NCBI GenBank assembly: GCA_964527555.1
Contig: CAZGOG010000007.1
Location: 1 to 60,378 of the forward strand
DNA length: 60,378 bases
From: an uncultured Planctomycetia bacterium
GTDB lineage: Bacteria > Omnitrophota > Gorgyraeia > Tantalellales > Tantalellaceae
Reading direction: 5' to 3'
Shown here: piece after piece, positions 1 through 27,500 of the stretch
Position numbering within the stretch: the first letter of the stretch is position 1
How the letters are laid out: every line of letters starts with the position of its first letter
The notes under the pieces: model-generated
What the model saw: only the letters and a program-made list of their open reading frames with translations
Database searches by the model: none
Told to the model about the DNA's origin: nothing
Program-made: the position numbers and the translations under genes

Positions 1-210
1 CGGAAGAACAAACTGCTCTCTGTCGGTGCGTGGGATGAGATGCAGGTTGCCGAAGACTATGAACTGGGGCTTGTATTATGGTTTAATGGTCTTAACGTAC
101 CTAATTTTTATACTCTTACTTCAGAGGACCCGGCATCCACTACGTTCCTTACTTTTGAGGTAAGGACGCTTCAGACCTCAAGGTGGAACAAGGGTTATAT
201 AATAGGACTG
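1..210 (+). other. GT2 (cellulose-synthase-like) catalytic C-terminal motifs in G1
   Basis: VGAWDEMQVAEDYELG matches the GxWDxxxxxED motif; QTSRW (172-186) is the QxxRW motif; hydrophobic TM helices follow. Confidence 0.85.
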
Positions 211-3200
211 CTCCAGATTGTTGGTAAAGGGTATATGTGGCGCCTTATCCGTAAAAAAGGAATGATAGGTGCTATTAATTTCCTCGTTCCGACTTTAGCA
301 AGTGCGATATTCCCGTTCTTATTCAGGATATCCAAACTGTTTGCGCTATTCTGGTGGACTTTCTATATACCTGTACAGGCTATAGGCAGCTTGGTGCTTA
401 ACAGCCAGCTTGGCCCGGTTGGCGTATGGTTACAGAATAACCTCGCCATAGGCACTATAGCTACTGATATGCATGAGTTTGTCTCGACGGTAGTACCTAT
501 TGCGCTTAACTTTAACCCCGAGGGATGGGGCTGGGCGGTGGGACCGGTAATTTCACTATCGATGATACTTATACATGCATTTTTCACGGTTGCCTCGATT
601 TTCCAGGGCCCTGATGACGAGTTAGGGCTTGAGACTGCAGACGGTATGTTTGAAGAATTTATTGATAAACTGGAAAATCCGGAACTTGATCGTATCACTG
701 ATATAAGGCAGTGGGCGATGAAAGAATTTGGGTATACGCCTGCAGAAGAAGCAGCGCTTACCGACGAGGAGCGACTTAACATTGTTGTTTCTAATATAGG
801 ACAGTTGTCATTGGTGGAAGGATTCAAAATAACGCAGGAGAAAGTAGATGTCCTTACACCGGGAGAAGAGGACTACCTGAAGTGTGCCGCATGGGGAGCA
901 GCGAATTTGGGATTAAACCCGAGAGAAGCAGTAAGGCGCGTGGATGATATCGGAGGCGCTATGCAATCCGCGATAGAAGAGTTAAAGGAGTCACGCAGGC
1001 ATGTTCAAGCTGGACGCATTAAGAATATAACATTTGTAGGTGGCAGGATCGTTAAGCTTAGCCTGGTTTCGCCTGCTTTGTGGATAGTGTTTGCAGGCCT
1101 TTTCTTGGGTTCTGTTGTGGCGGTGGCCTCAGCATGGAGTTTATTCTCTTTTGGAATGATTACCGCCGCTTTTACAATCGGGTTTACAGTTGTAGCTTTA
1201 GGCTTAGGGCTTGGATATATACATCTTGCTCCGGCAGGATCGATGCAGCGTTCCATAAGGGCAATGCGATTCCGTCTTGCTATGATCAACATGTTCATAC
1301 CGTTCTATCATATGCTGTATCTTTATGGCAACCGTGTCGCCTGGGGCGAAATAGGCCCGAGGATAGGATACTGGCATTTAACACCGCGTGCCGCCGATAT
1401 TCCCGCGGAAATTGCGAAAAAATACCTGGCCAAAGAACCGCAAGCGCCAAAGTTTGATCTCTTTAAAGGCACGACAGCTATAGATAAAGAACTTGAAACT
1501 CCGAGAAAGAGACTGCAGGCGGTACTTAATTATACGTTTCTGGGGGCGATATTTTATGCGATAGCTTATGGACTGAGAGCCGACCTAAGCGATTTTCGTT
1601 TGGGTACTATGATAACAGAATGCTTAAATATAAGCTTTGTCGAACCTGAAGCAGTTCAGATTCTCGGCATGGCCCCTTCAGCATTTTTCCTATGGGGAGT
1701 TGCAATAGGGTTGTTTATTTTAGTGACGGGAGGATTGATCAAGTTTATCAAGAAAGTATGGAGTTTAAGCCGTCCCGAACCGCTTATCCCCTGGGATACA
1801 AATAGACTAGGAAGAGGCTGGGCGGCAGTTTCGCCGACACGGCCGCTGGTGCCGCCTAGAGAGGCTCAGATCAACGGAGAGGCGCCCCACGCATTCCGTA
1901 CGATATCCGTATGGTCATTATTCGGTCTTGGAGGGGGATATGACTGGCTTTTCTACGGCCTGGTTTTCGGTCTTGGAATAATCCCCGCTTACATGATTGC
2001 AAACTGGCAGGGGCTTTCCTATATAGGTACAGGGCTCGGTGTAATGCTTGCTATTATTTCCTTGATATTTGCAGTTACGGGCCGTGACAGGGCAAACGCT
2101 GTTAGAGAAGCTATCCGCCAAGCCCATCCCGAGTTTAACAAACTGGAAGTCTTAACGCATAATATTGGAACCGACGAGGAAGCACTTAAAAAACTCCAAG
2201 AGATCTCTCCTGAAATTTATAAAGACATAAAGGAACACGAATTCTACGAGACGCCTTTTATCGGCCATGTGCTGGGTTTGTGGCCGTTTGTACGGAGAGC
2301 CTTTGTTCTTACCTCGGTGATATCAGCTATAGAAAGTATTTTTATTGCAAAACCACTGCGTCAGACTCCGGTTATTGAAAGAGAAGCCGGTGAGGAAACG
2401 CCTGAAGAGATATTTCGAGTGATAAACGTTACGGTACGCGGTGAAAAGCAGAAGATAGACCAGCCAGTTAAAGCCGCAGTTTTAAGGGTTAAGCCTGCCA
2501 GTACAAATATAACATTAAGCAGAGAGCCGGATTTGAATATCTCATCAGGAGTAAAGCGCGACGGTAGATACGCGTATCGCGTAATCGCCGGAAAACGGGT
2601 TTATGATAACGAACCTCAAGATGCTATGCGCAGGGATATGCCGACTGTTGGCGACCATATCCGCCGGTTTAAAAAGGATCATCCGGATGAAGAGATAATC
2701 GCCATGACGGGGTTTGGGAACCTCTTCATGAATAAATACGTCGTGGCCTGGAAGAACGGCACTTTGTATCATTTAGACGGGGAGGATACCGGCTCCCGCG
2801 AATATTACTGTATAGTACAGCATAAGGAAGATGCCCGCATGTCGCTTGAGAAAGTCAGATTCGCAAGTAACGCTGACGGCACTTATGACATTATAAGAGT
2901 GGATGATAACAGGAACATCTCCGATGATATAGTCTGGGCCGCCAGCGGGCAGCCGGCTATATATAAAGGTGAGATAAAAGGATTCAGCGATACATGGCAG
3001 TACTATTACGACATAAGGCAGCTTGTGAGCCTGCCGTTTATTGCCGGCACGCACCTGGGGATCTCACAGTTCTTTGAGGACAATGAGGCCCAGGATATAA
3101 AGAAAGAGATATTCGAAAAAGTCGCCGCGAAAAAGGTAGTTGAGATCGATATACAGGATCTGGATCTGGCGGAGATAAAAAAGGCCCTTGCGGAGAAAGC

Positions 3201-6554: not shown

Positions 6555-9500
6555 ATGGCGGGGGAATATATAAAACAGGGAATTTGTATGGATATACAAA
6601 ATAATAGAAAAAGTCACTTCCATGAAAAAACTTTTCATTATAAGGAAGTTTGCCCATTCTTCTCAAGCACAAAAGAAGATAATTCCAACTATGGCATAGC
6701 GGACTGGAAAAAGCGCAATGCCTTTTTTATTAAATGCGTAAGTATTTTGTTATCAATCATTTTCTTCCACCAGCAGGCCGGCTGGACCCAGGAAGGCAAA
6801 CCTGTCTGGACAGAGATCAAGAGCTATGACGCCTATCACGAAAAACTCGACAACACCAGTATAGACATTCCTTACGATGTCGCAAATACCCAGGAAGCTC
6901 TCGCTAACGGCGGAGATGAAGTCATAATCAATATCCAGGACGCTCATGCATCATTGGCCGCCCAGTACTCAATTGCCAAACTCTTAGATTCACTTGTCGC
7001 GAATTATGACCTGGAATTTATTGCCATAGAAGGCGGAAGCGGATATATCGACACTTCGCTATTAAAGACGTTCCCGGATAAAAAGGTGAGGGATAAAGCA
7101 GCCAATATTCTTATGGAAGAAGGCCATATGAGCGCAGGTGAGTTTTTTGCTGTGACGCATGACGAAAGCGAGATCGATCTCTATGGAGTCGAAGACGACG
7201 CGCTTTATAATGCCAACGTCGAAAGTTTCAGGGCAGTCGCGGGGGACAGGATAGAGCGCGTTGATAATATCAATAAACTGCTTAAGGAGCTTGAGAATAT
7301 AGAGAGGAAAGTTTCTTCGAACGAGCTTTATACTTTCAGTGAAAACTGTGCCCGGCATAGAGATGGCGAGTTTTCCTTCTCAGACCACTGGAAATATATC
7401 GAAAATCTTGCCGAGAACAAAAAAATCAAGTTTAATCCCGAACCGGAACTGGCAAAACTGGTCGAGGCTATAAGACTCGAAAAAACAATAGATTTCTCCA
7501 AAGCCAATACCGAACGAAAGCGATTAATAGACAGCTTGAGCGATATCATCGGGAAAGCGGAACTTGAAGCGCTTGTCAAGAAGTCGCTTGATTTCAAAGA
7601 AAACAGGATATCGCAGGCAACGTTCCACACTTATATCATAGACCTAGCGGCAAAACACAATATTCCCGCCGACGGATACACTAACCTTATAGCCTTTGCC
7701 GAATACGTGGATATTTATGAATCTGTTGACATCGTAAAATTGTACCGCCAGATGGCGAATCTTGAAAAGACGGTTAAGGAAAAGCTTTACCGCACGGGCG
7801 AAGAAAGAGAGTTTTATGCTCTTAAAAGGATGCTGGAGCTCGCAAAAAAACTTTACAGCTTAGAACTTACGAACGATGAATGCGCCGATATAGAATCAGG
7901 CTACAAGGATTTTACCCCCGCCAGATATGCTTCTTTTATCAAGGATGCCTCTTCAAAGTACAGCCTTGCCATTTCCGGAGATTACGATTTGAGTGAAGTA
8001 TTTAATAGTATTGATGAAGCTCTCAACTTTTACCGGGATGCCGAAGCCAGGAATAGCGCCATTCTTGCCAACACCGTCAAAAGGATGCGTTCCAGCGGCA
8101 AGCGCGTTGCGGCGCTGATTACGGGCGGATATCATACGCAGGGCCTTACGGAACTTATGCGCCAGAAGAAGCTTTCGTACCTGGTAGTCATACCGAAGTT
8201 TGAAGACAAGAGAGAAAGGCCGTATATAGCCATCCTTACCAACAGGAAAAAACCCTACGAAAAGGTGCTTGAGACCGGAAAATATCAGCTCGCCATAGAG
8301 GCAATATTCCGGGATAAGATGGATAGGGAAAGTCAAAAAGCGCTTTTTAGTCTTACTTATGACCTTACCATGCGGGATGCAAGTATCAAGCCTGGCGAAC
8401 GCGAAAGAAAAAGACGGATCTGGATAGAAGCATATGAAGCTCGCTATGACATGCTTGTCGAGCTTAAGGGCAAGAGGGACATGGCGAAAAAAATGACGCC
8501 GAATGAGTTTAGAGCGTTTCTTGCGGGAAAAGCGGCTGAAGAAGACTCCCGGAAAGAAGGGGAGAAAACAGCCGCAGAAAAAACAGAAGAGGAGAAGATA
8601 ACGGAGATAGTAGACTTTGTCATCGCGAATGATCCGGACCTGTATAAGTTAATATCGAGGTTGCTGCCAACTGGGAACGAGACTACCGTAAAAATCAGAG
8701 ACGAAATAAGCGTGCGTTTAAGGAGTAAAGGACTGGAACCCACGGAAGACAATATTCTTAAAGTGATCCGCAGGCTTGAGATCCATTATATAGAGAATAC
8801 GACCACGAGCGAACCTGTTATTGAAGTTAAATTCGGCAGGGAAGAACCGGTTCAGTTATCTATTAGAATGTCCGAACTGGCAGGTGAATTCGCTGATTAT
8901 GTTGCTTTTGTAAAAGGAGGGGGCGAGCTTCAGGATTTAGCGTTTACCAGCGAAGACAGAAAGTTTATTGAAGAGAAACTTACGCTTCTTAAAACAGATC
9001 TTCAGGCGCTGGCCGTTTTTGAGGCGGATGATGAGACAAGACAGCTGATACTCCGGCATACGGATCTGGCAATAGGTGCTTTATACAGCGGACTTAACAC
9101 CTATCCTCCGGATATCAGGGAGGAAGTAGAGGATATAACTTTTACTTACGGGAGCAGCCGGCTTATAAAAGATATCGTTATTTCCTGTGACACGTTCGAA
9201 AAAGCCGAAGATCTTGCCATGAAGATCGGTCTTTATGACGGAAAAACTAAAAGAGAATATTCCCATACTGAGATAATGGCGCTTAAGGGGAGTTTTCAGC
9301 TCGACGAAGAGACGGTAGATGAAGATGACGCAAGGCGCCAGTTTGTTGTAGTAAAAGACTGGCAGGTGTCACGAAGAGATTTTCTGAAAGGCGCGGGACT
9401 TGGGATACTGGCGGGTTCGCTATTGGTATCAGACGAAAATACTGCTCTTGCGGAAAAGCCAAACGGTAATTTGCGTATGGGCCAGCCGGAAGTTTTAGCA

Positions 9501-12500
9501 GGGCGGGCAGGTACGTTCAAATATGTGAAACGACCGCTTTATGATAACGGACATGAGCTGGGCGTAGCTATAATTAGGTATTCAGAAAAAGATCCTAAGG
9601 GAGAACTCATTCTTTATAACTCTTATGAAAAGATGCTTAAGGCGCGGGGAGTAGATATGCGTTATCTTCCGCCCGAGCCGCGGACAAAGGTAAATCCCGG
9701 GGTGCTGAAAGAACCTGTCCAGAGGATACTAAGCCTCTTAGAAAGCGAATACCCCACGGAAATGAAGGGAGATGAAGAAGAAAAAGGCATTAAAGGGCTG
9801 AACAAAGTTATAAAAGCCGAGAGGTGGTGCCAGATCTGGGCGGATATATGCAGCGTCCACAGGATGAACGAAGAGCGGGCCAAAGAGCACTTAGAAGGTA
9901 TGTACGGATTTCTGAAGATGGTCATCAAAGAGACCAAAAAGCGCAATGAAAGGCGCCTGAGCGGCTTGAACAAGCGGCATCCCAGGGAAAGAAAAGTAAA
10001 GATGGAGTTCCCGTCTTTGATGGCGGCTATTATGTACGATGTTTTGCCGTTCAGTGAGACGGGTGAAATGAATAACAGATTTCTGGGGCTTCCGGAGATG
10101 CTGATGCTCGCCGATTACCTGCAGTTGGAATTGGAAAAAGATATATGCAAAAATTATATGTACACTATTGCAGGTGTAGAGGAAGGTAAGGTCGAGATAA
10201 GCGAAGAACGAGTGTGGCAGGGCAGAATTGAAAAAACTAAATTCTTTGACATCATCGAAGACCTTACCGACAAAAGATATTACTGGCATATGAGAGTGGC
10301 CATGAAAACAATAAGCGGAGATATATATAAGGAAGGGTACCAGCATAATGGCGACTGGGAAGATTATATAGGACGCCTTGCCGTGTTGGAAGCGTCCAGG
10401 AAGAGTTTCTTCGGGTATAAGGATTCAGAGTTTTATAAAAGGTGGAGGGCAAAAGCGGGGGAGACTTTGGGTGACTATAATAGGAGGATACTCAGGGATA
10501 ACATTGACGAATTAGATATTGTCTACCGGTTTATGATAACTCAGGATCTTTCCCCCGATGAGATGGAGAAGTTAGCGCCGTTTTTGCATGGGCTTGAACC
10601 GGAGCTGGACAATATATTCGGGTCTTATGAAGACGAAAAAGCTCCGGAGCTCATCAGACCATGGCATGGGTCGTATCTCGCGGTGATACTGGACAACTTA
10701 AAGCGGCTTCCCTATAAACCGGACTACGGGCCAATAGTAGAAAGCGAGGTAAGGGAAGTCCGCGCGCTGCTTCATGTCGGCAGGCTCCTAAATGCGGCAA
10801 AAGGTCTGGAAGTGATCGAATTACTTAAGAAAAAGCTGGGTATCGACGAGATACGCAAGAATCTTAACAAAAAGATGGAATTTCTTTTATGGATGGTCAA
10901 GGAACTGCAGCTTTCACAGGATCAGATGCCTGATATATATACCGCCGCGCATTATGTGAAAATCCTCCAGACAATACCGTCACTTATTAAGGAAGGCCCG
11001 GATAAAGGCAAGTATATAAGCACAAAGTATGATGAAGAGGCCTATTATAAAAGAGGCGAGAAGATTGATAAGGAGATTATAAAATATTACGTCGTATATT
11101 ATCCTCCCGAAGGCAGTGAACCCGTCGGCAAGAAAAAGTACAAGACGTTTACGCCGATTGTGGATCAGGATGGCACGAGAGAAGTCCATGTGACGTACGG
11201 CGAAGATACTTATGCCAGAGAGATATGGCGGGTGAATGACGATGCCGCGGAAAGCTTTGACGTAAAAACCGCTGCGATAAACGGTAAGCTGGTAAATAAG
11301 GTCATATACAAAAACGGGCTTCGCATTATCGAGACCGTCGATGATGTGGACACTCCAAAAGGGGGTGTGACAGTCGATGCAAGGTGGTTATACGATGTTT
11401 TCTCAAAGGTATTCCCAAGGCTTGCTACCGAAAAAGTAAAGAAATTCTATGAAAACATAATCGTACCTTTTATAGAGCTGGTATATCCTTTAGCGGCGCT
11501 TTCACTGCTTGCCAAGGTGCAGGGAGTTCCCCTTATGAGCTTTGATTTAGGTTCTTCCATGGCAGTTGCCGCACTTATGGCGGCAGGCGCCGTTTTTGTG
11601 ACTAGTCATATCATAGGCTTATCTACTATCATCAATAAGCTTACCGGTAGAGCCCCGCCGAAGATCGAAAGAGCCTCTCTTATTATCTCCACTTTGATAT
11701 CTTTAGCGCGTGTTTTTATAATCCTTCCAGTTGCGGTAGTCGTGACGAACCTTTGTTTTGGCCGGCCGGATTTAACTATTTTTGTTTATTTGGCTTTAGA
11801 CTGGCTGTTTCATGCAAAGATAAGTTCTTCTGCACCCGGAATAATGAAATGGATAGAAAGACGAACCCGGAAGGACGTGATAAAAGGTGAAGGTAAGGGC
11901 CAGTTGCGAAGGGATTTCATAAAAGAGGTATTAAGCTTTTTGACCGGTGGCGCTTTGATTCCGGCAGGAGATAAAACTGTAGCCGGCGAGTCTCAAGCGG
12001 AAGGCGAGCTTAAAGTTGCGGAAAAACTGCCGGAACCGCCTGAAGAGGTTTTAGAAGGTCTTAAGATGCCTATGATCGATCCCAAAAAAACAGCAGCGTA
12101 CTATATACCGCCGGACAGTAAAACCGGTCGCGTTCTTTTCAGTTCGGATAAGCATAAAATATACGTGCATTTTTATGATGATCTTAAGGATCCTAATTTT
12201 GTGTATATATCGAGCACGGCTAAAAAAGATATGGTTGTAATTGACGGTGTTTACCACCATATTTGGTCCGTTTACAAAGTGAAGGAGAAAAGTACGGAAG
12301 TCGGAGGCATGGTTCATATAGATAAGATGAAGATAATCGGCAAAGCCATAAAGCTGAAATTCGACGGGCACCAGATTATAGACGAAGCTGATCAGCCGAA
12401 AGAAGGCGGAAAGGAGCCTGAAGAAATACCAGAAAAAGCGCCGGAAGTGTCAGGCGAGATTACATTTTCAAGTAAGGGCGAAACGGCTCTTTTAAAAGGA

Positions 12501-15500
12501 TTAGGCGCCGGAGAGACACTTGGAGAGCCTCAACTTCTTGCGGAAAACACAGTTTTACAGCAAGGATGCATTAAATATCCTATATACAGGGAGGGAGCAG
12601 AGGTCGGAGCGGCCATAGTTGATGTTAGCCCCGTGATGGGCGAGCTTCACGAAAGCGTTATCAGCAAAGTTTATTTCAACGAAACAGATAAGCTTATAGA
12701 TTTACGCAGGACTCCTCCCGAGCCCCGTACAAAGATTGATCCGGAAGCCCTGGAAGGTCCGGTAAAAGATATCCTCGCCCTTTTAGAAAGAGAATACCCC
12801 CAAGAGATGACCGGACAAAGGAAAGACGGGACAAGTGTAGAAGGAGCCAAAGCATTAAACGGCTTTGTAGGCATCCATAGGACGGAGAAGCGTCCCGGCT
12901 GGTGCGAGATCTGGGCGAATATATGCAGCGTTCACAGGATGAGGGAAGAAGTAGCTGTAGAACATTTAAAAGGAGTCCGCGTCTTTTTAGAGATGATCAT
13001 CGGGGAACTTAAAAAACGTAATACAAGAAGGGAAGAAGAAGGCAAGAAAAAGATGGAACTTCCGCCCGTGTTGGGTCAAGGCATGTATGGGCTCTTGCCG
13101 CTTGATGAAACAGGGGAGATCAATAACAGATTCCCGGGCCTGCCGGAGATCCTGATGCTTGCTGACTTTTTACAGGTACAGTTGATTAAACATAGATTTG
13201 AGAACACAGACATCCCTGACTCCTTACCCCATCGTATTGTGAGCCCTGAATCATTATTTGATTTGTGGATCAATAAAAAGTGCGAAGGTATTGACACAGG
13301 GATCTTTAGTATTGTTGAAGATCTCTCAGATGGGAAAGATATCATCAGAGCAAGAGCACAAATGAAGATTAAAGGCGCTTATATCTATGACAATATGTAT
13401 CAGCATTATGCGGGGGCTGATAAGATAGGACGGCTGGCTGTTTTTGACGCCGCCATGGAGTGTTTCCCTGGGTATAAAAGATGGAAAGCGCGACCAGGAG
13501 AGTCGCTCTATGATTATTATTACAGGATATGGATGAGAAACAAAGATGACTTGAATATCTTTTATAGATTTATAGTTAACCAGGATATGTCACCTGAGGA
13601 GTTAAAAAGACTTACACCGTTCCTGCGCGACCTGGATCCGCAGCTTGAAGAAATTTTTGGCAGTTACGAAGAGATGCCGCTGGAAGACCTGGGTAAAGAA
13701 TGGCACGGGGCGACTCTTGCTGATTTTTTAGAACAGCATAAAGGGGAAAGGAAGAAGCTTGACGAAAGTATGATGGTCAAAGTACAGGCGGAGGATATCA
13801 GCGGCTTACTCCATACGGATAGACTTCTCAACGCCGCAAGAGGGCTTGGAATAGCAGATGAGGTAAAAAAAGGAGTATCTCCCGGGAAAATACAAAAAGA
13901 ACTGGACAAGAAAATAGCATTTTTAAAAGAGATAGTAAGAGATTTCCAGAAAGCACAAGGGCAGACACCGAGTATATTCACAGCGTCCCATTATGTGAAA
14001 AACCTCCAGACTGTACCTGCGCTTATCCAGGAAGGGGAGTATAAAGACGATAAATACATAAGCATAAAATATAACGAAAGAGACTATTATGATAAAGACA
14101 TAAAAACGGTACAGTATTATGTCTTGTATAACGATGAACTGGGAAAAGAAAGCTTCAAGACATTTACGCCGATGGTGGACCAGGACGGCAGAAGAGAAAT
14201 CCATGTAACGTATGGCGGAGATAGTTATGCCAGAGAGATATGGCGGGTGGATAAGGATGCCGCGGAAAGCTTTGACGTAAAAACGGGCAGAATAAACGGT
14301 AGGCTGATAGAAAGGCTCGAGAATATAAATGGAGTTCGTATTATTGAGCCCGTCAAGGATACGGAATATGTAAAAGAAGGCGTTACAGTTCATACAAGGT
14401 GGCAAAGGGTAGTTGCGACTATTCTTTTAGGGACATTTGGCGTGACTTTGCCCTACGAGGCCGGGGCAGCGGCGATGAACGCGGCAATATTGGCCGCAGA
14501 GGTGCAGACGCAAAGACAGCTGCAGCTTGAGATCGCCGAAGAACTTCCAAAACCCTCACCGGAGCTTCTAAAGGACTTTGAAGATGCTATAGCCAACCCG
14601 AAATCACCGGCCTCTTACTATATCCCGCCCGGCAGCGAGACAGGCCGCGTTCTCTTTAGTGCATTGGACAGGATATATGCGCATTTCTACGATGATCTTA
14701 AGGACCCGAAGTTTATTTATGAAACAAGCATGGCCGAAGATGACCTGCTCGAGATCAACGGTAAACTCCACCATGTATGGTCTGTATATGAAGTTGTGCG
14801 CAAAAGCACTGATTCCGAAGGTAAAGTCCAGATAGACGAAACCAAACTGATAGGCGAGGTTATCAATCTTAAGTTTGACAAGGACACGCATCAGGCTGCC
14901 AGCAAGGGAGATAGATTCGCAAATATAAACACCAGGGAAGTCACTTATAAAACGCCGGACGGCAAAGAGCACAGTGACTATTACAGGTACGTAAAGTACG
15001 TAGGGGATGCCCCCGAAGGATTGAAGGAGTATATTTTTAAACGCAAAAAACTCGATGACGGTAAATTTCATCTCGTGGCGGCGCTTGACCCGAAGAAAGC
15101 GGACGTCACCACCGATGGCGAACTAATCATAAAAGGCGACGAGAAAGACGCCATAGTCAAAGAGTATAAATATGACAAAGATTATACATGGCAGTATGAC
15201 TGCAATTTAAAAACGAAGAACATTTTCGCATCTCCTTACAACAGGGTCGCCACTAAAGCTACCAGCAATGCGATAGTCAAGTTAAAGAGTCTCAGCGGGT
15301 ATGAAGACGCTGATGGATTCGTCCTTCCCTATGACAGAGGCGCGTTTCTTAAAAATGTCCTTGAGGAATACGGGTATTATCCGGACGGCAGCCTCATGTG
15401 GAAGAAAGACCATGTTAATAAACAGTATACACTTTACACAGAATATACCATGTTAGGCAGACTTTGCCGGCTTTCCGGCACCATATATGATTATACCCCG

Positions 15501-18500
15501 GAGACGGACACGAAAGGCGAGGAGCTTAGGAGCTTTAGCGGGTATTCGGAATATGAAACCGAGACGTTTTTTGCTGTTATTAAGGGGAATCCAGGTGTTT
15601 ATTACAGGACGCTCAAGGGGGCAGAAAGAGCTGACGCGCTTTTAGAGGCCAGCCCAAACCCTCAAGCGGGGCGCATGGATATTACAGGGATATTGAAAGA
15701 GTTCGAATATAATGCTGACGGCAGCCTTGCAAAAGTCTGGGATTATAAGTTAGGCGAAGTCGCGGTTTATAAATGGCATAGAAAATTCGGCACCGAGAAA
15801 AAGCTTACCGATATAGGCGGAGATATATACAAGTTTGACGGCAGGAAAAAAGAGACGAGCGGCGAGCCACTGAGGAGTTTTAACGGCATTACGGACAAAA
15901 CCGGAGCCTTTTTTGAAAGAACGGATGAGCCTGACGTTTATTATTGGACGGAACAAGGCAAGCTGAGAGCTAAAGCTCTTGTAAAAGCAAAACCTGACGA
16001 AGCGCATGACTTGATGCTGGTGGAGAAGGTTATAAAGCATTTCAAGGATAGCCAGATAGAAATAGACGGGAAAAACAGGATATTCGAACTTTCAATCCCG
16101 GGCTCTTTAACTAAAGGTGAACGGTTTATCTGTTACGGCGTCGAAGTAGAGGATCCCAAAAGCGGAAAAAAACTCGAAGATTTTGGTGTAAAAGTCGAGG
16201 CTGTCTGGCAGGGCAAGGATGCCCCCATAAGCGGGATTAAAGTGCTTGAATATTATAAACAGAACATGATTCCCGGAAAAGAGAAATACGCGGGTAATTT
16301 CGGTGTGGACGTCTATGTTTTAGAAGACGGCAAGGTTGCAGAAAAGCCGTTCAAGACTTTCAGGAAACTGGGCCCCAATAGCGCTGAAAGGGACCATATT
16401 TCCAAAGTAGTAAATGATTACGCCGATAAATATCCGGAAAATAATCTGGGCCGCGCCAGTGACGAGGAACTTTTGAATGCATTATTCAACGTAGAAGGAT
16501 ACGAGGAAGGCGACGATGCGTTTCTTAGGGATGTTATAGATAGAGCGCTTGAGATGAGAGGCGTATTAGACGGGATATTCAAGCAGAATAATATTAAAGT
16601 CTTAGAACAAGATAAAACCCTCCAAAATGAGATACTTTCGCACATCTTATACTGGACGGCTGCCGAGGATATAGATTTTGATGAGCTCCTTGAAAAACTG
16701 CCGGAGGCAAGCACCATAAAAGGCCTGATGGAGTACATCCACAGGAAACACAAAGACTTTGACAATCTTCTTAAAGAAGAGAGATACGTAATTGTACTGG
16801 ATACTCTCACCGGCTGTGCCAAGACTATGGTTGAGACGGGAAGATCCAAAAAAGACATGGAAGTCGTACTTAGGGTATGGATACGCTATGAGGACGAATC
16901 TGGAACAGGTGCAATGAATGCCGGTGACGTCTACAAAGAAATAGAGTCGGGTACTTCCGCTATACGCAACAGGGAATATGTATGGGATATTGTTAAAATA
17001 GGTCTTGCAGTTACGGGGATACTCTTCCTGGCGGCAGTATTTTTACGCATTTTAAGATCCCTTAATTCTACTAAAAGAATAAGAGCGTTAGGACCACCGG
17101 CAGCCGGCGCTGGAGATGCGGCTGCCCTTGCGGAAGGAGCAGCAGATGCTGGAGAAGATGCTGCAGGTTCCCCTGAGGAAGCAGGACACGGTTTTGCGCC
17201 AAAGACGGTCAGGGTGCCTATGATTATCGCGGGTGCCGCTCTAGTTTTATCGTGGTTTATGTATACCAACGACTGGTCAATGTGGCTGGTCATACCGCTT
17301 GCGATTATTTCACTATATGTACTGGCCAGATCCTACGCACTTCTTCATAACGGAATCAGGGCCAACATGATGGTCTACGGGATGAGTCCCTGGGAGGCGT
17401 TCAACACAGAGCTTTCATTTTCCGTGAAAAGAGGCGGCAGGTATGATACAGATGCTTTCGAAGTGCTTCCTGCCACTACTAGATTTTTCCCGCCGATGTT
17501 TACCCGCGGTATACTTCAAATACTGGACTACATGCTGGAGGTGTTTGATGTCCTTAAAGATTTTAAAGTATCCCAGCTTAGAGATTATGTGATAGACGAG
17601 TATCGCATCCCTATTTCTAAGAAGGGCAGGGTCGCCAAGACGGGGGATTTTGTGGTGGAAAAAGTACTTGATGTTAAGGAAGATGACACGCCGTCAACAT
17701 TTATTTTGGGTAAAACCACACCCGGCGCGGCGATGCAGGAAATCATAAAACGCCATGAAAGCATAAGAAATCACATTTTGGCTTTACCGGCTTTATATCT
17801 ACCGGCTATTTTCGGATACCATCGAATCCTCGTCTTTCTTGGTCTTGGATCCAAAAGAAGCGGCAAAAAACTTTTTAATAGACCCATAAATCCTCCGAAT
17901 AAATGGGCGGTTAAGCTCAAGGTGAAAACAAGGGATGATATAGAGAAAGAAATCAAAGCGAGGCGCAAAACCAGAGATGATAAAGCTCAAGATTTTGTAG
18001 GGGACATAAGCTTTGACACTGAAAAAGCCTTTAAAAAAGCGCATTACGCGCTTAACCCGAGATTTAAGTGGCCGGGATTTAAAGGTCTTGTGAACGTTGA
18101 CTATAGATGGAATCTGTGGGGGGCAGGATTTCTCCTGACGGGAGCTTTTATTGTTTACCATAATGCCATGAAGGTATGGACTTCCGGTGACTGGGGGGGA
18201 TTTGGCATCTCAGCCTGGGTAGTAGCTGCAGTATTTATGCTGCTAAGCGGCATAATCAACAGAAAGCTTATCTGGGATAAAGCAGGTTTTATCGTTCCTT
18301 TCGTCTCCGGGTTAACCGTGCTTATGGTCAACCTCCTGGCGACAAGTGTCATAGGCGGATGGACCGGATTTGGCCTGCCCATGTGGGGTTTCGGTGCTTT
18401 TTTAGTTATTTCCAGTCTCATAGTCGGTTTTAAGATCAAGCGGGGGGTCTGGTATCCTACCGAAGAGAAACAGACAGAAGCTTTAAAAATCTTAGCAAGA

Positions 18501-21500
18501 CAGCTAGGTGATATCATAGAAAAAGTTAAGGAGAAAATCACATACGGCGATGATGTATTAAAAGCTGAACAGTGGAAAGAAGTCTTTAACTTTCCGGTAA
18601 GAGCTCCCTTTGGTGACCCGGAAGACGCTGTGAATATACAGATGGTGGAGATAGACTTTCTTGGGTATTTAGAATACTGCAGGGACTGGACAACATTTTT
18701 TACCACGAGTCCCAATAAAAACAAATATTACTTTTTCTCAAAGTACCATACCCCGCCTTACGATCCACAGTATTTCTTGCCCACTTTCTGGGTTAAAGGC
18801 CCCGCTTTCACGCAACTTAGGACAAACATGCGCAGAGACGGGTCACCGACAGAGTTTATTTCATATGGTCCGGCTGGGGACCTAACGGTTCAAGAGGGAA
18901 GAGGCCTTCCGTCGATTGATACAAGTATACCGGCACTGACAGCGGCAGTCGAAGGAGAAGAGGGGAACGAAGAAAATCTGGGGATGATCGCTCTTATGCC
19001 GGGAACGGAAGAGGAGACCACTGTACAGTTCGGACCTCAGTATAACCTGGCTTACGAACCCATTACGCATGAGACGCCACATAATGGACAGATAGCTTAC
19101 AGGAACAGTTATCAGACCGCCCCCTGGGACAATATCCTTAAGATGCTTGACCAGGCCAAGGCACGCCTTAAAGATATCAAAGAAGCCGGCGAGAGGCGAT
19201 ATGGAGAAGACTTTGACCCGGATAACATGGCGCAATACCGGCAGGCAAGTCAGGATGACAAGAAAAAGATCCTTTATGCTGAGACCAGATCTGTTGACAG
19301 TTTCAAGGGTTTTGGCGGTCCGGGCCCGGAAAGCTCCAGCTATATCAAGTTCATGAAAAGGCATAAACTGACTATTATCTTTATGAGTGCACTCTTCGTT
19401 CTAGGGACGTATGGCGTATATATAGGCAAAAGTGTGCTGATGTCCTGGAACTGGATACCTGATATGACAGGTATGTCTATTGGTATGCATACAGGCTCAG
19501 TCTTTCTTGCGATGGTGACGATATATATGGTCATGATATCTATTGAGAAGCTGATTCTCTTTTTCTCGAAATTCTTCGGGAATCCCGAGGCGATCACGGA
19601 CGAAGATATACTCAGCGTTCCGCCCAGGATCCTGGTGGAACTCATAAGCGAGATAGAAGTAAAGATGAGAAATGAAGGTAGACCCATACCTTCTTATCTT
19701 GCGAATATTAATCAGCTCAGGGTGAATGTAAATAATGCCGGTCCAGTAGGTGATCAAGCACGGGAACAAGTTCGCAATATAATCATGCAGGCATCCCTGG
19801 AGACCGGTAATTGGGCACAGAGATTTCACCAAAATGTTTCCAATTTTAAATGGGGATACAGAAACTTAAGTTTTTCCAGGAAGGCAGCGTTTTTCGTTCC
19901 GTATCTCCTGGCGCTTTTCATCCTTCAGATCGTACACAGAGTATTCGGATTGTATTATTTCATTGCCCGAAAAGGGAGGATCTTAGCCGAGGAGAAACCC
20001 ACCCTATGGTTTTTGAACCGCCTGAGACTGGAAACGCCTCTATTAAAGGTCATAAGTCTTATAAACAGGCCCAGGCATACGGTTATCGGCATACTGGAAG
20101 AGAGAAGATATCTCACTCCGCAGCAGGCTGCGGATCTTAGAGCTGTAAGAGGCAGGTTCACCAACGAAGACGTCTTGGAACATCTTAATATAAACGCGAT
20201 AAATCATATTCTAAAAGACAATTACATAAGCAGGAGGTATGGCTCGCTTCTAAGGACCGGGATCGTGATGGATACGACGTTTGGAGGTACTACTGGGGAT
20301 AATTTGTGGAGGATGGCAAAAAGTGCCGTTGACAGCTACCCCGGGGGAGTGGACGTTTACCTTATATTTGACGATAATGACGCAGTCGGTCTTAAACAGT
20401 TTGAAGATACAGTACAAAAGATCAGAAACGACCCGACTATGGGGGATCGCGTAGCCGACCGTATTTACCGGCTGACATTTCCGGCACCTTTAGCCAACCT
20501 GGAGCTTACGCAGAGATCTCAGCGCATGAAACCTCCCATGAATGTCGAAGCGGTCATGGCGATACAGCATGATTTTGTTTTAAGGCACAGAGAACCGCCG
20601 GAATTTATGGAACTAGTGGACCAGGAAGACGTTTTGGGAGAGCTTAACCTTGTGACTAAGGCATGTATACGTGACATAAGAGAAAGACATGTCCAGGAGC
20701 AGCTCTATCTCGGTTGTACTACACAGGAGGGCTTGAGGTGGGGGATTGACTACGATAAGGCAGTGTATGGAACAGCTATTAGCCGTTTCTTTGGCCGGAT
20801 TTTTGGTAACACTCCGCTTAGCGGTCTTTTCCCGACAGGGCTTGCCGGGGAATACCACGATATGATAGAGGCTCTTACGAGGGAAGCTAATTATCCGAAT
20901 ACCCTGATAGACCTCATTCGCCTAAAGAACACCCCCGGCGCGACGGCTTTACCATGGGCGACGAGTAATAATGCTGATGAAAGGATCAGGTACATACTTT
21001 GGTGTTTCCTTAAGTCGGCCGGTACAAAAAAAGAGTTTATAGAAAAAGAATTCCGAAGACGCAACATGCCGTCAGTCATACAGTCGGAGCTGAGGCAAGT
21101 TCCGATAAAAGACCCTGAGTGGAGCAAATACTCCTATATGGATTACCTTATCTGGCATAGCACTATACAGACCGGGCAGACGCGTCTCGGATTTCTCTTT
21201 CTCGGCGGGACCGGTAACAATTTCGAGTGGGAAGACTTATCCGGGGTTATTCCCAGATTAGATGCCAACCATAACCTTACAGGGTTTGACTTTATTAACT
21301 GGAGACATTATTTTAATTTCCTCCTGAGGCCCCAGAGAGAAGAGATCCAAAGGGAGGAGACCATTCAGCATAATAGAAAGAAAGAAGAAGGTCTTAGTTT
21401 CAGGCCGGATCTCTTGGTCACAAGGCCTTCTGCTATATATCGAGAATGGGTCAATAAGTACATGCCTACGGGCACATGGGACCTTTTTAATATAATCGAG

Positions 21501-24500
21501 GACTCGGAATTGGGATCTCGTATAGCGCTCAGGGGCCAGAAATCGACCAGGCTTGAAGGTCTTTATACCCAGATACTTGAGGATGAGCTTCCCGCGGAAG
21601 GTATTAAATGGTGGCTGCAGAGATCGCGCTGGATATCCGTACAGACTTTTAGTGCCGTTATAAGTCACCGTCCCGCCGCTTTTATGTTCTTTGGCCAGCA
21701 TATCTTTGCCGCTTTGGCCTGGGGTCTTATAGGCACGAAGTTGACTCTTATACCCGGCATAATCGCCGTTCTCATTGCTTTTTATGCTGGAGGATGGTTT
21801 TCCTATTTCGTAGGTATAGGTGTCAGCCGTCTTTTCCGCAGGATAGGCTGGGAAAGAAACGAGCAGTGGCAGACCGACCCGTTAAAGACCATGGGGGGCT
21901 TCTTCTTGGGCTGGTGGCGCTTCCAGAACATGGCATATCTATCCTCCGCTGCGTTTGCGGGCCTTGCTGCGGGTATTACCTTGCTAGTCACGGCTCTTTA
22001 TTTCGGGATTACCATCTTTTCCACTTCTTTCTTTGTCTGCTTAGATGGCGGTATCTTTCAGCTTCTTAGCTATGTCACCAGCACCAATCTGGGTACGATA
22101 CCGACAATGGAGAACTGGCTTATAACCACAATGTTCGGGATTATATTTTTCTTAAACCCTCAAGTGCAGCAGACTCTCATGGGATGGATCGTAGCTTCTA
22201 TCAACGCTCCTGAAGACGAGGAATCAACGCGCCAGCAACTTTGGGCAAGGATAGAAGACAGGGGATTTAGAAAATTGTTTGGTTTTGATAATGAATGGAT
22301 ATTGGATCCTAACAACCCGCCAGCTGCTGCGGTTATACACGGACCGTATCCGCCGATTAATATCGACAAATATCGGGATGAAGGAGCAATTAACCAGCTT
22401 CTTGCCAGGTACCACAGATTTGCCTTAAACGCAATCGAAAGAAATGCCCAGGAGATACAGGACCTTCTTATAGAGTGGACACCGCTTCTTTTGGGGAAAG
22501 ACACGATCCAGGCAATGCTGACGGAGATAGCCCACGCCACCTCCAGAGGCATTAAAGAAGAAGATTTCGTCAAAGACAAAAAAATATATGCATTTTTATT
22601 GAAAGAATGGAAAACTTTTATTAGCGCCAGAGGTGAACATGATTTTTACGAGTTTATTGAAAGAAGAGCAAAAGCGTCAAGAGACGGGAACATAGACCCC
22701 GCTATTAACACGGCTAATATGTTCCTCTTTAACAGCTGGAAAGAGTTTAACGCGGCCAGAAAGAAACAACCCGTAGACCCTGGTAAGATCGGGAGTATTT
22801 ACGTCTATAAAAACGCCATGATGCAGGCTATTACCGAGAGTAAAAGTCTCTGGGGTTATACTCACGGCAGAGTGACTATCGGGCTAAAAGGGGCCCTGAC
22901 GGGACTTGGCATGTTAGCCTTGACGTGGTGGGTTCTAAGCGCTTTATACCTCATACCGGCATTTGTAACGACTACGTTCATAGTGCTGGGTCTAGTAATG
23001 ATTATAGGCTGGATGGTTTCTTTGTTTGTTTCCATTTTTATCGATAACCCCAACTGGAAAGCCGGAAGGTCCCCCCAATCGAAGATCGGCAGGCTGGCCT
23101 ATCACGGCACTATGTGGTTCCTGAGAATACCGCTTATGCTTATATATTTCAGCGGCATGATCGTAGCGGCCGCTTTTGCGATCTATACGGCCCTTTCCGC
23201 ATGGGTAAACGAAGCGTTCTGGCTAAGGGGCCGGCAGAGGATAAGTGTAACTTTTCTGCCGGGGGACAGGCCCACCCTTGCAAATTATATTGATGTAGCC
23301 ATCCTTAAATCCAGAGCCGAAGGCTGGGCATATTTTCTGATATTAGTAGCATTTTTTGTTATATGTGGTCTTCCGGCAGTCAAGGCGTTGGAACAAGAGA
23401 GGGTGAATGCGATCAGAACCGTTACCATAGAACCTATCTGGCAGGAGTTTATTAAAACCCCCAATGAAAATACTGCTAGAAGATTATATGATTTTGCATA
23501 CTGGGATGCGGTAAAGAGAGACAAGGGCGGTGTGGATCTACGCCTTGACTCCAGCGGTCTTATAATTTCGAAACTTGGTCTACGAGAAGAAAAAAAGATG
23601 ACCCCGGATGAAGCCGACACGGTCTTTAAGGGAGCGCTTATATGGATTCAGGCTTACCGTAAGGCATTATATGATGCGGGGGAAGAGAACTCGCTTAACG
23701 CACAATATGCCTTTGAAAGGGTTATTAACGGGTTTGAGACCTTCTGTCAGAGATATGAGATGATGGACCGGTTCGAGAAATATTTCCCAACGGAGGCAAT
23801 AAGCTTACTGGGTGAAGGTTTCACCGCGACGTGCGATCCAGATCCGGGTGAGGTTGGACTGGACGCCACAAAGAAAGAATTATTAATTAAGCCCGATCTT
23901 GAAAAAGACTATATCTGGATATGGCCTGACAGCAAGGCGGGTAATATTTTGGACGTCTATTTTGATCTGCCGCCCGAGATGGTCACCATCGATATGGAAG
24001 GCAAAGAGTTTGTGTTTGAGTTTTTTGTGCCAGAGGATCAAATGAGCGCTTTTACAGGCCGCAGCATTAAAGCTTTTTATGTGGATACTGAAGGGAGAGA
24101 TTGTGATGTTGGCGGAGAGGAAGAGATTATTCAATATGAACCTCTCCCGGAGCATCAGAGAGAGCAGGGGACTTTGGTGAGGGTAAACGTCGCCCCCGAC
24201 AAGCGGTCACCAAGCGGGTTTAATTTTATGGCTAAAAGATTTTTTATACGGATAGACGGGAACCAAAACCGGCCGGTTTCAGGTGAAAGCATAAGAATAA
24301 TAAGTCCAAGAGTGCAGAGTCGGATTTCTCTGTTAGATAGGCTCAACTATGACTGGCAGAATTTAAATTTATTCGGGACAAAAACCGCACCTCCTAGAGG
24401 ACAGATCACGCCGCCTCCTGCGCAAGAGGTAAAGCCGCCTGCAAAACCAACAATAGGATCAAAAAGAGCGCAGAAAGCGCAAAGAACTTCATGGCTTAAG

Positions 24501-27500
24501 AGGATCTCGCATGAAGCGGCCCAAAGGGTGAAAGAGATAAACCAGATGAGAGCTGCCAAGCCAAAAGTCTCAAGAAGGGGATACTCACATGGCGGCAGAA
24601 AACCGTGGGGTAGAACAAGTCTCGATATTATGTTACCGGAGGTACTTATCACCGCGGTAATCGCAATAGTCGTTGCGATTTTAACGCTTGGTGTGGAGAC
24701 AAACCTGGTCATTTACACAGTAGCAGCTATTTTAGTGTTTTCCGCCGCTTTTATGGGGGCTTTATCGCTTGGAGCGGGTATCAAGTATTTAAGGAACAAA
24801 CATCCGGAGGAATTGACGCCGCTTGAAGAGGGCATAAGAAGAAGCATTAAATATTACGCACCTGATGTAGAACTTCAGGAAGAAGAAGCTGAAGAAGAGC
24901 AGCATTTCCAGGCTCTTATAGATCCAGCTAAAGCGCCCCAGTATTATTCCGAGGAGATAGTCTTTAATGCATCCGGCTATACGGGTAATAGTGTCGATGA
25001 TATTAAGGAATACTTGAGGGAAGAAAATGGAACTGCTGTTTCCGTTGAAGGACCTAAGATAGGAGAGATTACCGTTGTCAAGAATTTCGAGGCAGACGCA
25101 CGTATAGCTGCTCAACTTGTAACGTACGGTATAAATATTAAACAACTTATTCAAAAAGACCTGGCCAAAGCGATAAGGATCCGGGGGCCGAACCTATTCC
25201 AGGGTCTGGAAGATAGAGAAATGTCACTTGTCCTTCTCGATAAATCCCCGTCCATATTCGAAGACCATAAGAAGAATAATTTCATCGGAATAAATAGAGT
25301 TCTCTTTGATAAAATCGCCAAAAACACCTCAAAAGAGGTTCTTGAAATTTTACTTATTACAGGTATACTTCACGAGCTAAGGCATGAAGCAGGCGAGGGG
25401 GATGAGGAGAAAATTACAAAAGAAGACGTTAGTCTTATTATATCCTTGGCAGCTCAGAAGGGCGTAACTATAAGATCAATTATTGATGTAATTAACCTGG
25501 TTTCAGGAGAGAGTCTACTTGTTGAAGAGTTAGAGAAGACTCCGTCTATAAATGTCCTAGCCGTTAAGATGATAACGAATGCAGCCAACCGTGCGATTAA
25601 GAATATAGAAGAGAAAGGCTGGATTACAACAACCCATAAAGATGGAATACTTAACCTTCTAAGACAGATAGCTAGAGGCGATGTCCCGTGTGGAACGGTA
25701 TATGATACTTCTCTTTCTTATACCGAACGAATAATGATAGATAGCCTTGGCAGGACTCGGGTAGAAATCAATACAGCACTTTTCTTTAACCACTCAGATA
25801 TGGAACACGAGGCTGATATTGTGCACGAAGTTGTACATTTCTTGCCACATCAAGTTGCCATGATACCTCTAGTAAACCAGCTTCTTCCGCAAGTAATTGG
25901 AATCCAGAATAGTCTTTCCGAGAGAGCTTTTAGCGAAAGAATTAAGGCTGACATAGATTTGCGTGAAATGAATAAACGGTTGTGGGCAATTAAAGTGCAG
26001 GGTGAAGCCGAGGCTCACTCAATTGGATATGAATACTGTAAAAATGCTTTACACCAAGAGAGTATAAAGTTTAAAGATTATTTACTAGAGAAAGCGGATT
26101 ATTTAGAGCAGGTGGCCGTTCGGGGTGATGTGGCAGCAAGGGCTAACCGTTGGCTGGTCCAGCATTTAACGGAAGAAGGCGCATTGGATTCCCGCTTCAA
26201 GCTATGGGTGATGAAAATTGCGCTTCATGAAAATACTATGAACATAATACGACAAATAGCCGAAGCTGAAGGTGTTGACACCTCAGACGAAACTCAGTAT
26301 GAACAGTGGTTACTTGCGTGGGTGAACAATCCAGAGTACGGTGGGATAGAGCCGGAAGGCGTGAAAACAGAAGCGCCAGAAACAGCTGTTAGCAAAAGAA
26401 TTAAGAAAGTTGCCGGTATTGTTATCCAACATATGGAAAAAGACGGGTGGATCGTTTCAAGCCACAAGGAAGAACTAATTGCACTCTTAAAAGAGATTAC
26501 AGAAGAGGGCAAATTCGAACTATTTAATGATCCCGCTCGTGGGATGGTTATGTGGATCGACGAGAAAAGAGACAATATATTGCAGGTCAATACGGCTCTT
26601 ATAGGCATGTATTCAGATCAAGAGATGGAATCAATACTAATACACGAGATGTTTCATCGACTGCCTCATCAGATTAAACGGCGCCGGAGAATTAACGAAA
26701 TCCTCGAGGAGCTAAAACGAAAGAAACCGGCAGCGGATGTTTTCTTCTGGAGAAATGAGGAGGGAAATGAAGTGCGTGAATTACTTAAGAGACTCATCGC
26801 CCTAAGAATACGAAATGAGGTTGAAGCCTGGTCTATTCAACATGAATATAGAAAACATATCGCTGAAAGCCTTGGATTTACCGATGTGAGGGATTACTAC
26901 CGAAAATGTGCGAGGGAAACTACCAGTCCGGGTATAAGAGAAGACTCTAACATTTTTATTAGAACTACACAAGATGACGGGACTTTAGGAGGAGAATTCA
27001 AGTGGATGCTCTTATCAATAATATTGCTACCATTAGGAGCCTCAGTAGCGAGGGGGCTCAGGGAGATGCTTAAAAACACCGCTACAGCTGAAGGTATTCT
27101 TTCTTCTGATGAAAATCAGTTTAAGGCGTGGCTGTTATCATGGATAGATGATGTAAAATACTGTGAAGTAGAACCAGAGGCCACACCAGTGAAGCCTTTG
27201 CCGGCTGAGACGGTAAAACCAACCCAGGAACCGACAGAAAGCGACGTGCGCAAGAGAATGACCCGGATCGCCAGCGAGGTCATCCGGCATATCGAGAAAG
27301 ACGGGTGGATCACTACGGAGTATGCCGGGGATATCGTTGGGGTTCTGCGCGATATCATAGAGAAAGGCGATTTTGAGATATATAACGAGCCGAATGACCC
27401 TTGGGGGCTTAAGGTCTCTCCGGCGAGCCATGGAGCCGGACACGTATTAAAGGCCAATAGGCCTATAATAGCTATGGATTCGGATGAGGAACTTGAAACG

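Follow-up and report, generated by a model that had tools for sequence, protein, structure and literature searches.

Internal twin-arginine motifs in a 7845-residue Omnitrophota membrane protein as possible Tat-type export signals

Twin-arginine motifs deep inside a very large protein

Polytopic membrane proteins that depend on both the general secretory (Sec) and the twin-arginine translocation (Tat) systems include the actinobacterial Rieske proteins (Sco2149, QcrA), the haem-molybdenum protein Sco3746, the archaeal and bacterial polyferredoxin PFD and the YkuE-type metallophosphoesterases (Keller 2012, PMC3471235; Tooke 2017, PMC5449189). In Rieske, Sco3746, PFD and YkuE proteins the Tat-dependent helix is skipped by Sec owing to its weak hydrophobicity, and in the proven Sec/Tat proteins basic residues stand right after this helix (PMC5449189). 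A second set of relevant systems comprises the giant membrane proteins of Omnitrophota, the 'archaeovorins', described in two studies that both leave topology and possible cleavage open and that report neither twin-arginine motifs nor internal signal peptides (West-Roberts 2023, bioRxiv 10.1101/2023.11.21.568195; Nielsen & Lui 2026, bioRxiv 10.64898/2026.06.07.730766); the later one dismissed internal signal-peptide calls as chunking artefacts (bioRxiv 10.64898/2026.06.07.730766). For the Omnitrophota giants, the threading of chains that range from thousands of residues to over 100,000 through a membrane is an open question. Here we analyse a stretch of 60,378 nucleotides from an uncultured Planctomycetia bacterium placed in the Omnitrophota by GTDB (GenBank assembly GCA_964527555.1, contig CAZGOG010000007.1, positions 1 to 60,378; hereafter the window). 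One of its open reading frames (ORFs), G2 (6555..30092, + strand), encodes an uninterrupted multi-block membrane protein of 7845 amino acids (aa) with more than 25 hydrophobic segments, in which two twin-arginine (RR) motifs lie far from the N-terminus. We tentatively propose, with somewhat less than even confidence, that both are working Tat-type start-of-export signals for internal folded blocks, in a variant of Sec/Tat dual targeting.

An initial annotation of the window had drawn attention to these motifs, and its coordinates proved exact, with the G2 frame continuous throughout (aa n begins at nt 6555+(n-1)*3). Motif 1 (9369..9452, aa 939-966, + strand) reads S939-RRDFLK-GAGLGILAGSLLVS-DENTALA966, then EK, and includes a Gly-rich hydrophobic stretch of 14 aa; motif 2 (11904..11969, aa 1784-1805, + strand) reads L1784-RRDFIK-E-VLSFLTGGALIPAG1805 and includes a weak hydrophobic stretch of 14 aa. 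The uncharged run after the RR element is exactly 14 residues in both. Set against the Tat consensus (S/T)-R-R-x-F-L-K, SRRDFLK of motif 1 is an exact match, and LRRDFIK of motif 2 departs by L for S/T and I for L; judged by these residues, motif 1 would carry the full Tat-signal consensus and motif 2 a near-consensus. A small-x-small cleavage site, ALA|EK, follows motif 1, and no clear one follows motif 2. For the pattern RR[DE]F[LI]K, 0.005 occurrences are expected in the 17.2 kaa that the first three ORFs of the window (G1-G3) encode, and two are seen; none of 5000 shuffles contained two, and the six frames of the window hold no occurrence beyond motifs 1 and 2. The two motifs are real, far above chance and, as detailed below, conserved. 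As an isolated piece of 60-62 aa, motif 1 scores 23.7 bits with TIGR01409 (cut-off 16.7) and 25.2 bits with PF10518 (gathering score 22.7); within a 4000-aa query the scores fall to 15.8 and 16.1 bits, under both cut-offs. The location is not that of ordinary Tat signals: the 7845-aa frame is continuous, the motifs begin at its residues 939 and 1784, and base composition gives no sign of internal starts.

Both motifs have the short, moderately hydrophobic h-region of Tat signal peptides. The best 12-residue Kyte-Doolittle mean is 2.12 for motif 1 and 1.73 for motif 2, as against 2.3-3.3 for most other helices of G2. Membrane-insertion sums, rough estimates from approximate Hessa-scale values with no position term, range from +6.6 to +9.7 for the RR helices (+9.3 and +9.7 for the two G2 motifs) and from -0.9 to +3.9 for most neighbouring helices, the exceptions being hydrophobic segment d ahead of motif 2 (+7.3) and the N-terminal signal or anchor of G2, SP0 (+5.8). 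The motif 1 and motif 2 helices hence show the low hydrophobicity of a Tat-dependent helix, and this supports Tat handling since it is the property that hands such a helix from Sec to Tat (PMC5449189). In an AlphaFold model built from an 11-sequence alignment the motif 1 helix is unpacked, with a predicted local distance difference test (pLDDT) score of 31-39.

A tandem duplication and the conservation of the twin-arginine element

The motifs belong to a tandem duplication, and the X/X' and Y/Y' duplicates that we recovered bear out the initial observation that each precedes a soluble repeated domain. Unit 1, all on the + strand like unit 2, consists of motif 1; domain X (9453..11429, aa 967-1625), with an N-terminal β part, a large all-α core, a C-terminal β part and an anchor, WCQIWADICSVHR, at aa 1091; four hydrophobic segments a-d (11454..11816, aa 1634-1754), of which b and c are strong and a and d weaker; a very basic loop (11817..11903, aa 1755-1783) that together with RRDFIKE holds 12 K/R against 5 D/E; motif 2; and domain Y (11970..12446, aa 1806-1964), β-rich by eye. 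Unit 2 consists of a decayed copy of motif 1 (LKGLGAGETLGEPQLLAENTVLQQ, 12492..12563, aa 1980-2003) ahead of domain X' (12447..14402, aa 1965-2616), then motif 3 (14397..14504, aa 2615-2650) and domain Y' (14505..14969, aa 2651-2805). X (aa 952-1611) and X' (1965-2616) are 43-53% identical over BLAST segments and 47-49% over the whole alignment, and Y (1812-1964) and Y' (2651-2802) are 46-49% identical.

The signals of unit 2 have fared differently from its domains. LKGLGAGETLGEPQLLAENTVLQQ, a relic that the initial annotation had not listed, has lost both the RR pair and the hydrophobicity; its alignment with LKGAGLGILAGSLLVSDENTALAE of motif 1 is gapless (score 39 versus 20.7 +/- 4.0 in shuffles, one of 2000 reaching it). 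Motif 3, R2615-WQRVVATILLGTFGVTLPYEAGAAAMNAAILAA, was initially listed as a third signal-like element. It begins RWQRVVATILLGTF and ends AAILAA, contains no RR, has its hydrophobic part split by E into two short halves, and aligns to the motif 2 helix (LPYEAGAAAMNAA versus LSFLTGGALIPAG); it is the decayed duplicate of motif 2, a relic rather than a twin-arginine signal, and it probably does not span the membrane. That both signals are intact in unit 1 and both decayed in unit 2 suggests that the ancestral unit carried two. AlphaFold gave usable models for X (mean pLDDT 72) and for the G2 N-terminal module (pLDDT 65); X has no PDB relative by sequence and no Foldseek PDB match with E below 0.05, and X and Y alike gave no Pfam, NCBIfam, PDB-sequence or fold match.

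The features around motif 2 agree on one topology. The stretch from aa 1806 to 3481 contains no real hydrophobic segment apart from the motif 3 relic, and the next strong helix, TM-A (16998..17045, aa 3482-3497, + strand), is followed by RILRSLNSTKRIR, with 5 K/R in 15 aa. By the positive-inside rule the basic loop 1755-1783 should be cytoplasmic, and the stretch 1806-3481, which comprises Y, X', Y' and some 700 residues beyond them, would then form one outside block that is opened by motif 2 and closed by TM-A, the likely stop-transfer of this block. An outside position of X' would lead one to expect the same of its paralogue X, and motif 1 would likewise be an opening signal. The four-helix membrane module that the initial annotation placed ahead of motif 2 corresponds to the four hydrophobic segments a-d; as a and d are weak, the count of spans could be three or four.

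Relatives of X are few. A search of an X/X' profile against 1.84 billion representative proteins recovered the protein itself and only ten others, all long or fragmentary, and a DNA pattern for the X anchor (W..IWAD.C..HR) run on a genome collection gave two true loci, both in 'Candidatus Omnitrophota' assemblies. Word-indexed protein searches (X with motif 1; a 10-copy alignment; the transmembrane cluster with motif 2 and Y) returned nothing and missed even G2 itself, which we take to reflect a limit of the index for these proteins rather than absence; an exact look-up of G1 gave no record; scans of genome contigs by X and by N-terminal module alignments also returned nothing, and metagenome scans by alignment and by DNA pattern gave chance matches only. 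The count of conservation covers the 12 X copies for which 150 aa or more of preceding sequence are available; of these, five have RR-x-(F/L)-L followed by 12-17 uncharged residues, located 132-157 aa before the anchor W..IWAD.C.VHR and in every case internal. The background of the RR-x-(F/L)-L pattern is 0.32 per 1000 aa, and these five fall within one 26-residue span. They are found in G2 (VSRRDFLKGAGLGILAGSLLV..ALA), in P0008 (LTRRDLLKGILAAAAAQILPGANMSKA, LTRRDLLKG..MSKA), before the first and second X copies of P0004 (IGRREFLGGIIGAGLGMGTA, IGRREFLGG..GTA, and LRRRTFLGVVIGATVGMLYSGEPA, LRRRTFLG..) and in P0009 (VSRRGFLSTLAVSLFA..FGSA, VSRRGFLS..GSA). The element of P0008 passes TIGR01409 at 17.2 bits. 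The RR pair is in register in four other copies from three distant relatives, so that the motif withstood the conservation check that the initial annotation had named as able to refute its reading.

Between the RR-bearing copies the identity in X is a mere 21-31%. The order signal, N-terminal module, linker, RR element and X is common to G2 and P0008, with 41% identity in the module, 25% in X and a linker before the motif that cannot be aligned. The X copies P0002, P0006-2 and L004 lack the element, and P0011 has RM in place of RR. As the X' copy lost its motif at 47% identity while RR was kept at 25%, selection on the motif is indicated: the RR motifs look selected, not accidental, and the conserved F-L-(K/G) exceeds the needs of a basic topogenic flank. 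Y has no relatives outside G2 among the family proteins, and hence the conservation of motif 2 can be assessed by analogy alone, from the 'X - helices - RR - X' order in P0004. This protein of 1596 aa repeats an RR element, X and a hydrophobic helix pair twice over; three spans per unit would alternate the sides of X, so that one part of each unit is not a permanent span.

Second signals behind the N-terminal module, and the surroundings of G2

The N-terminal module of G2 (6780..8597, aa 76-681, + strand; motif IINIQDAH) is preceded by SP0 (6720..6770, aa 56-72, + strand), KKRN-AFFIKCVSILLSIIFFH, with a basic N-flank. The module, of about 600 aa, heads large proteins; it recurs in the neighbouring ORF G3 (30455-32300, 52% identity) and at no fewer than 117 loci of the genome collection (L010-L126), and among the 89 loci listed most are titled Omnitrophota/Omnitrophica and many others 'uncultured Planctomycetia'. 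In the relatives the N-terminal signal has a K/R-rich n-region, a 13-residue h-region and an end of the form ..D(I/L)VWA|QGG.P.W, and in 102 of 114 relatives the N-flank of the SP0-type signal is more basic than the C-flank; from these features it reads as a textbook cleavable Sec signal. A Tat type, considered because P0008 and P0011 read RRR.A.F.K, was discarded, as it has no model support and G2 and G3 have KKR and RK. The AlphaFold model of the module shows a split α/β core with a long helical insert, for which we found no Pfam or PDB match and no significant solved fold relative; an erythromycin-esterase-like fold was rejected, the Foldseek matches being weak and not significant. Since X and the module have folds without relatives, they give no clue to sidedness.

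Of 34 first single-helix-sized hydrophobic segments after the module in related proteins, 23 have the polarity of a signal, 5 the reverse polarity and 6 are neutral. This second segment often ends in AxA or a lipobox, as in L046 (TDRRGFFGTSFK..VKA|QE, RR-type), with intact examples in MKWLKNPKVLLLLSLALLPGC and SRRTFLAAMLGIGVAAALTGC. Complete-looking Sec, lipoprotein or Tat-lipoprotein signals stand in frame 650-1000 aa into ORFs that already start with a signal peptide. They include those of L036 (PLNN01000019.1; AMKWLKNPKVLLLLSLALLPGC), L015 (CAYHAE010000026.1; PSRRTFLAAMLGIGVAAALTGC, a Tat motif with a lipobox) and L020 (SLKKWLIPGLTGVLALLAPSVASA), besides L065, L095 and L068/L097. No standard topology model accommodates consecutive signals of like polarity. 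The conflict would be resolved by cleavage of the chain, by initiation at internal starts or by a kinetic route over two translocons. One candidate solution is that the Omnitrophota ORFs with this module are true polyproteins, in which a Sec-exported module is followed by further Sec, lipoprotein or Tat signal peptides and signal peptidases I and II do the cutting; each such signal would begin its own round of export, and a single ORF would give rise to several exported products. This fits the family pattern, in that same-polarity signals without a stop-transfer between them prevail (23 versus 5 of 34) and intact AxA or lipobox ends occur, and we nevertheless hold it to be unlikely. Conserved internal Tat, Sec and lipoprotein signals would mark restarts of export, possible cuts and outside blocks.

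The window consists of four very large ORFs, all on the + strand: G1 (40-6195, 2051 aa), G2, G3 (30374-52207, 7277 aa) and a fourth that leaves the window end (52572-60378, at least 2602 aa) and begins MSSYCPKLRKVFTFVIAGLFLFNSAC, an N-terminal signal that may be of lipoprotein type. The GC content is 0.38-0.40 over the fourth ORF and about 0.45 upstream; GC skew and AT skew are positive across the whole window, the coding strand being purine-rich and the large ORFs confined to one strand. The starts of G2 and G3 lack a Shine-Dalgarno-like sequence and have very AT-rich leaders (GC 0.20-0.27). After a helix cluster G1 contains FVRRAFVLTSVISAIESIFIA (aa about 750-775, window 2290-2360), where RR-x-F-V opens a weak hydrophobic segment. 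G3 combines Metallophos, phosphoenolpyruvate (PEP)-utilising (mobile and PEP-binding) and class-II fructose-bisphosphate aldolase domains with HEAT repeats and many helices, in the manner of archaeovorins. Together with the assemblies in which X and the N-terminal module recur, these domains point to an Omnitrophota source for the window. A C-terminal module of about 330 aa is common to G2 (29094-30092) and G3 (51089-52207), with 32-41% identity and the end ..REILV(K/R)A*, to which the P0011 C-terminus, ..REVLMAA, is similar; as G2 and G3 share both terminal modules, conserved ends flank variable middles. Near its C-terminus G2 also has a tandem array of four repeats (aa 6318-7440, 25506-28874), each about 280 aa long and sharing 21-35% identity, of which the last three each contain an HExxH-type motif (HEVVH, HEMFH, HETVH) and the first is adjoined on its N-terminal side by HELRHE; one repeat gives a SprT-like match below threshold (20.1 bits, gathering score 25.6). 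A GT2-like 'QRSRW' motif near aa 5000, considered as a cytoplasmic landmark, was dropped as it has no Pfam support.

Routes of export and comparison with described systems

If the motifs are Tat-type signals, as we tentatively favour, each would have the polarity of a signal peptide, with the basic end cytoplasmic and the C-terminal end outside, and would stand at the N-terminal border of a block destined for the outer side of the cytoplasmic membrane. Strongly hydrophobic helices would be inserted by Sec/YidC during synthesis, and the RR helices, too weakly hydrophobic for Sec, would be passed over, so that the next block is made and folded in the cytoplasm: X after motif 1, and Y-X'-Y' with about 700 further residues after motif 2. 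TatC would then recognise RR-D-F-(L/I)-K, the folded block would cross by the Tat system, and the next strong helix would close it, the a-d cluster in the case of X and TM-A in that of the second block; signal peptidase may finally cut at ALA|EK after motif 1. The motifs with their frequency above chance, weak helices, in-register conservation and decay in unit 2 are observed, as is the charge pattern about motif 2 and TM-A; recognition by Tat, folding ahead of transport, cleavage at any site and the side on which X lies are inferred. The decay of both signals in unit 2, where the domains are still 47% identical, is what would be expected if only a signal at a block edge is needed; L015 and L046, further Omnitrophota proteins that bear the N-terminal module, supply independent RR-type cases on the same side.

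A number of observations weigh against this proposal. Only the N-terminal signal, an odd count, lies ahead of motif 1; with SP0 of Sec type and no hydrophobic segment in between, the N-terminal module should already be outside and the RR pair of one continuous chain would face outward, unseen by TatC, and P0009 presents the same parity conflict. Judged from flank charges, four spanning helices a-d would place X inside, unlike X'. The 15 residues after the helix have a net charge of -1 for motif 1 and -2 for motif 2, with two K/R each, although basic residues do follow the RR helix in P0009. Neither motif 2 nor motif 3 gives a match to any Tat model, nor do three of the four RR motifs of the relatives. 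Among proteins with the N-terminal module, RR precedes a hydrophobic stretch in 4 cases, compared with KK in 4, RK in 5 and KR in 3. For X we could recognise neither a cofactor site nor a relative by fold, and thus nothing that calls for folded export; the window, with its four very large ORFs only, contains no tatA or tatC, and the papers searched contain no report of Tat in Omnitrophota. Finally, the Tat-dependent helix is the last one in the Sec/Tat families, whereas in G2 more than 20 helices and about 6000 residues follow.

Several of these points would be accommodated if Sec alone handles the protein, the RR elements being marginal start-transfer helices or linkers dealt with by SecYEG/YidC, and RR-x-F-L-K an inheritance from a Tat-exported ancestor of X that was kept as a basic, topology-fixing flank. 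Marginal helices aided by their neighbours are common in polytopic proteins, the strong helices and very basic loop before motif 2 would suffice to orient it, and the missing trailing basic residues, the missing cofactor signature of X and the lack of an RR excess over KK, KR and RK in the wider family all agree with such a history, as does the fact that Sec- and lipoprotein-type second signals outnumber the RR-type after the N-terminal module. Yet a topogenic flank needs neither R-R nor F-L-K, and RR-x-(F/L)-L has been kept in five copies between which X is 21-31% identical; moreover, the element decayed in the paralogue that is not at a block edge, 14 uncharged Gly-rich residues make a poor Sec helix, and motif 1 has no upstream helix to assist it. 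We therefore regard handling by Sec alone as rather unlikely, albeit deserving serious consideration. A history in which the motifs are functionless, drifting leftovers of once separate Tat substrates, which the initial annotation had raised as fossil fusion, would explain why two of the four signal copies in G2 have decayed, why several X copies (P0002, P0006-2, L004) have no signal and why P0011 has RM. It is hard to reconcile with intact copies in register across such divergent X domains, with the architecture that G2 and P0008 share despite an unalignable linker, and with the loss within G2, where an unneeded copy is unrecognisable as a signal already at 47% identity; in its pure form we consider it improbable.

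We assign a similarly low probability to G2 being an in-frame fusion whose blocks are also, or mainly, produced as separate precursors from internal starts, so that the RR signals would be N-terminal. Candidate starts are GTG 9366, giving M-SRRDFLK, and TTG 11904 or ATG 11844, giving M-KWIERRTRKDVIKGEGKGQLRRDFIK. The parity conflict would then disappear, GTG 9366 and TTG 11904 precede the RR pairs by 2 codons and 1 codon, respectively (the background figure for RR dipeptides is 8.9%), and P0004 (..GMPLRRRTFLG), P0009 (GMGPVSRRGFLS) and the second signal of L036 resemble complete precursor N-termini with Met; a promoter-like site matching 11 of 12 positions also stands at 11694-11722, ahead of ATG 11844. 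Promoter-like sites show no excess, however (8 versus 5.1 +/- 2.1 in shuffles), the GC content upstream of the internal candidates is 0.47-0.50 as opposed to 0.20-0.27 at the true G2 and G3 starts, and by hand count about 10 of 34 second signals have a Met among the 12 residues ahead of them, with about 25% expected. The frames, furthermore, are uninterrupted for tens of kilobases across many genomes, a point in favour of a translated fusion. A Shine-Dalgarno test of the internal starts was uninformative, as the true G1-G3 starts also lack such sites. Chance resemblance has only the shortness of the motif to recommend it; set beside two occurrences where 0.005 are expected, none of 5000 shuffles with two, and five of 12 X copies within a single 26-residue span over a background of 0.32 per 1000 aa, it is practically negligible.

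Among described systems, G2 resembles N-terminal Tat signals in the motif itself (S-RR-x-F-L-K, then a short hydrophobic region rich in Gly/Ala, then an AxA site), differing from the ordinary signals represented by PF10518 and TIGR01409 in its positions at aa 939 and 1784 of 7845. Some Tat substrates, of the HybO/FdnH type, have a C-terminal anchor helix, and the succession in G2 of signal, exported block and closing helix with a basic cytoplasmic flank is like that of such tail-anchored substrates. The polyproteins of enveloped animal viruses are cut by host signal peptidase at internal signal sequences that alternate with stop-transfer helices. G2 likewise has several signal-type segments with AxA-like ends in one long chain; its same-polarity signals, however, are consecutive with nothing between them, and cleavage is only putative. 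To our knowledge there is no bacterial example of a polyprotein cut by signal peptidase at internal signals. With the archaeovorins the locus shares Omnitrophota relatives, tandem very large many-helix ORFs and, in G3, PEP-utilising, class-II aldolase and HEAT domains; unlike them G2, at 7.8 kaa, is under the 'giant' classes, and we detected in it no SecA_DEAD, C39 or S8 domain and no glycolytic-type marker domains. The Sec/Tat proteins offer a parallel to the arrangement as a whole, with an internal RR consensus, a basic loop (predicted to be cytoplasmic in G2) after Sec-type helices, a weak helix and then a large soluble domain, and motif 2 with its four preceding hydrophobic segments resembles the 5-helix layout of Sco3746 and PFD. 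The exported domains of those families are cofactor-binding, though, and G2 shows no cofactor motif; it has two RR signals per chain and no basic residues after the helix, and its motif 1 follows a Sec-exported module instead of an even number of helices. Hence G2 may work like the Sec/Tat proteins of Tooke et al. and yet is not one of them, since its RR helix is not the last and is not followed by basic residues. If Tat does handle these motifs, the known hand-over from Sec to Tat would no longer be confined to a final cofactor domain and would also cover internal blocks that are repeated and reach about 1700 residues.

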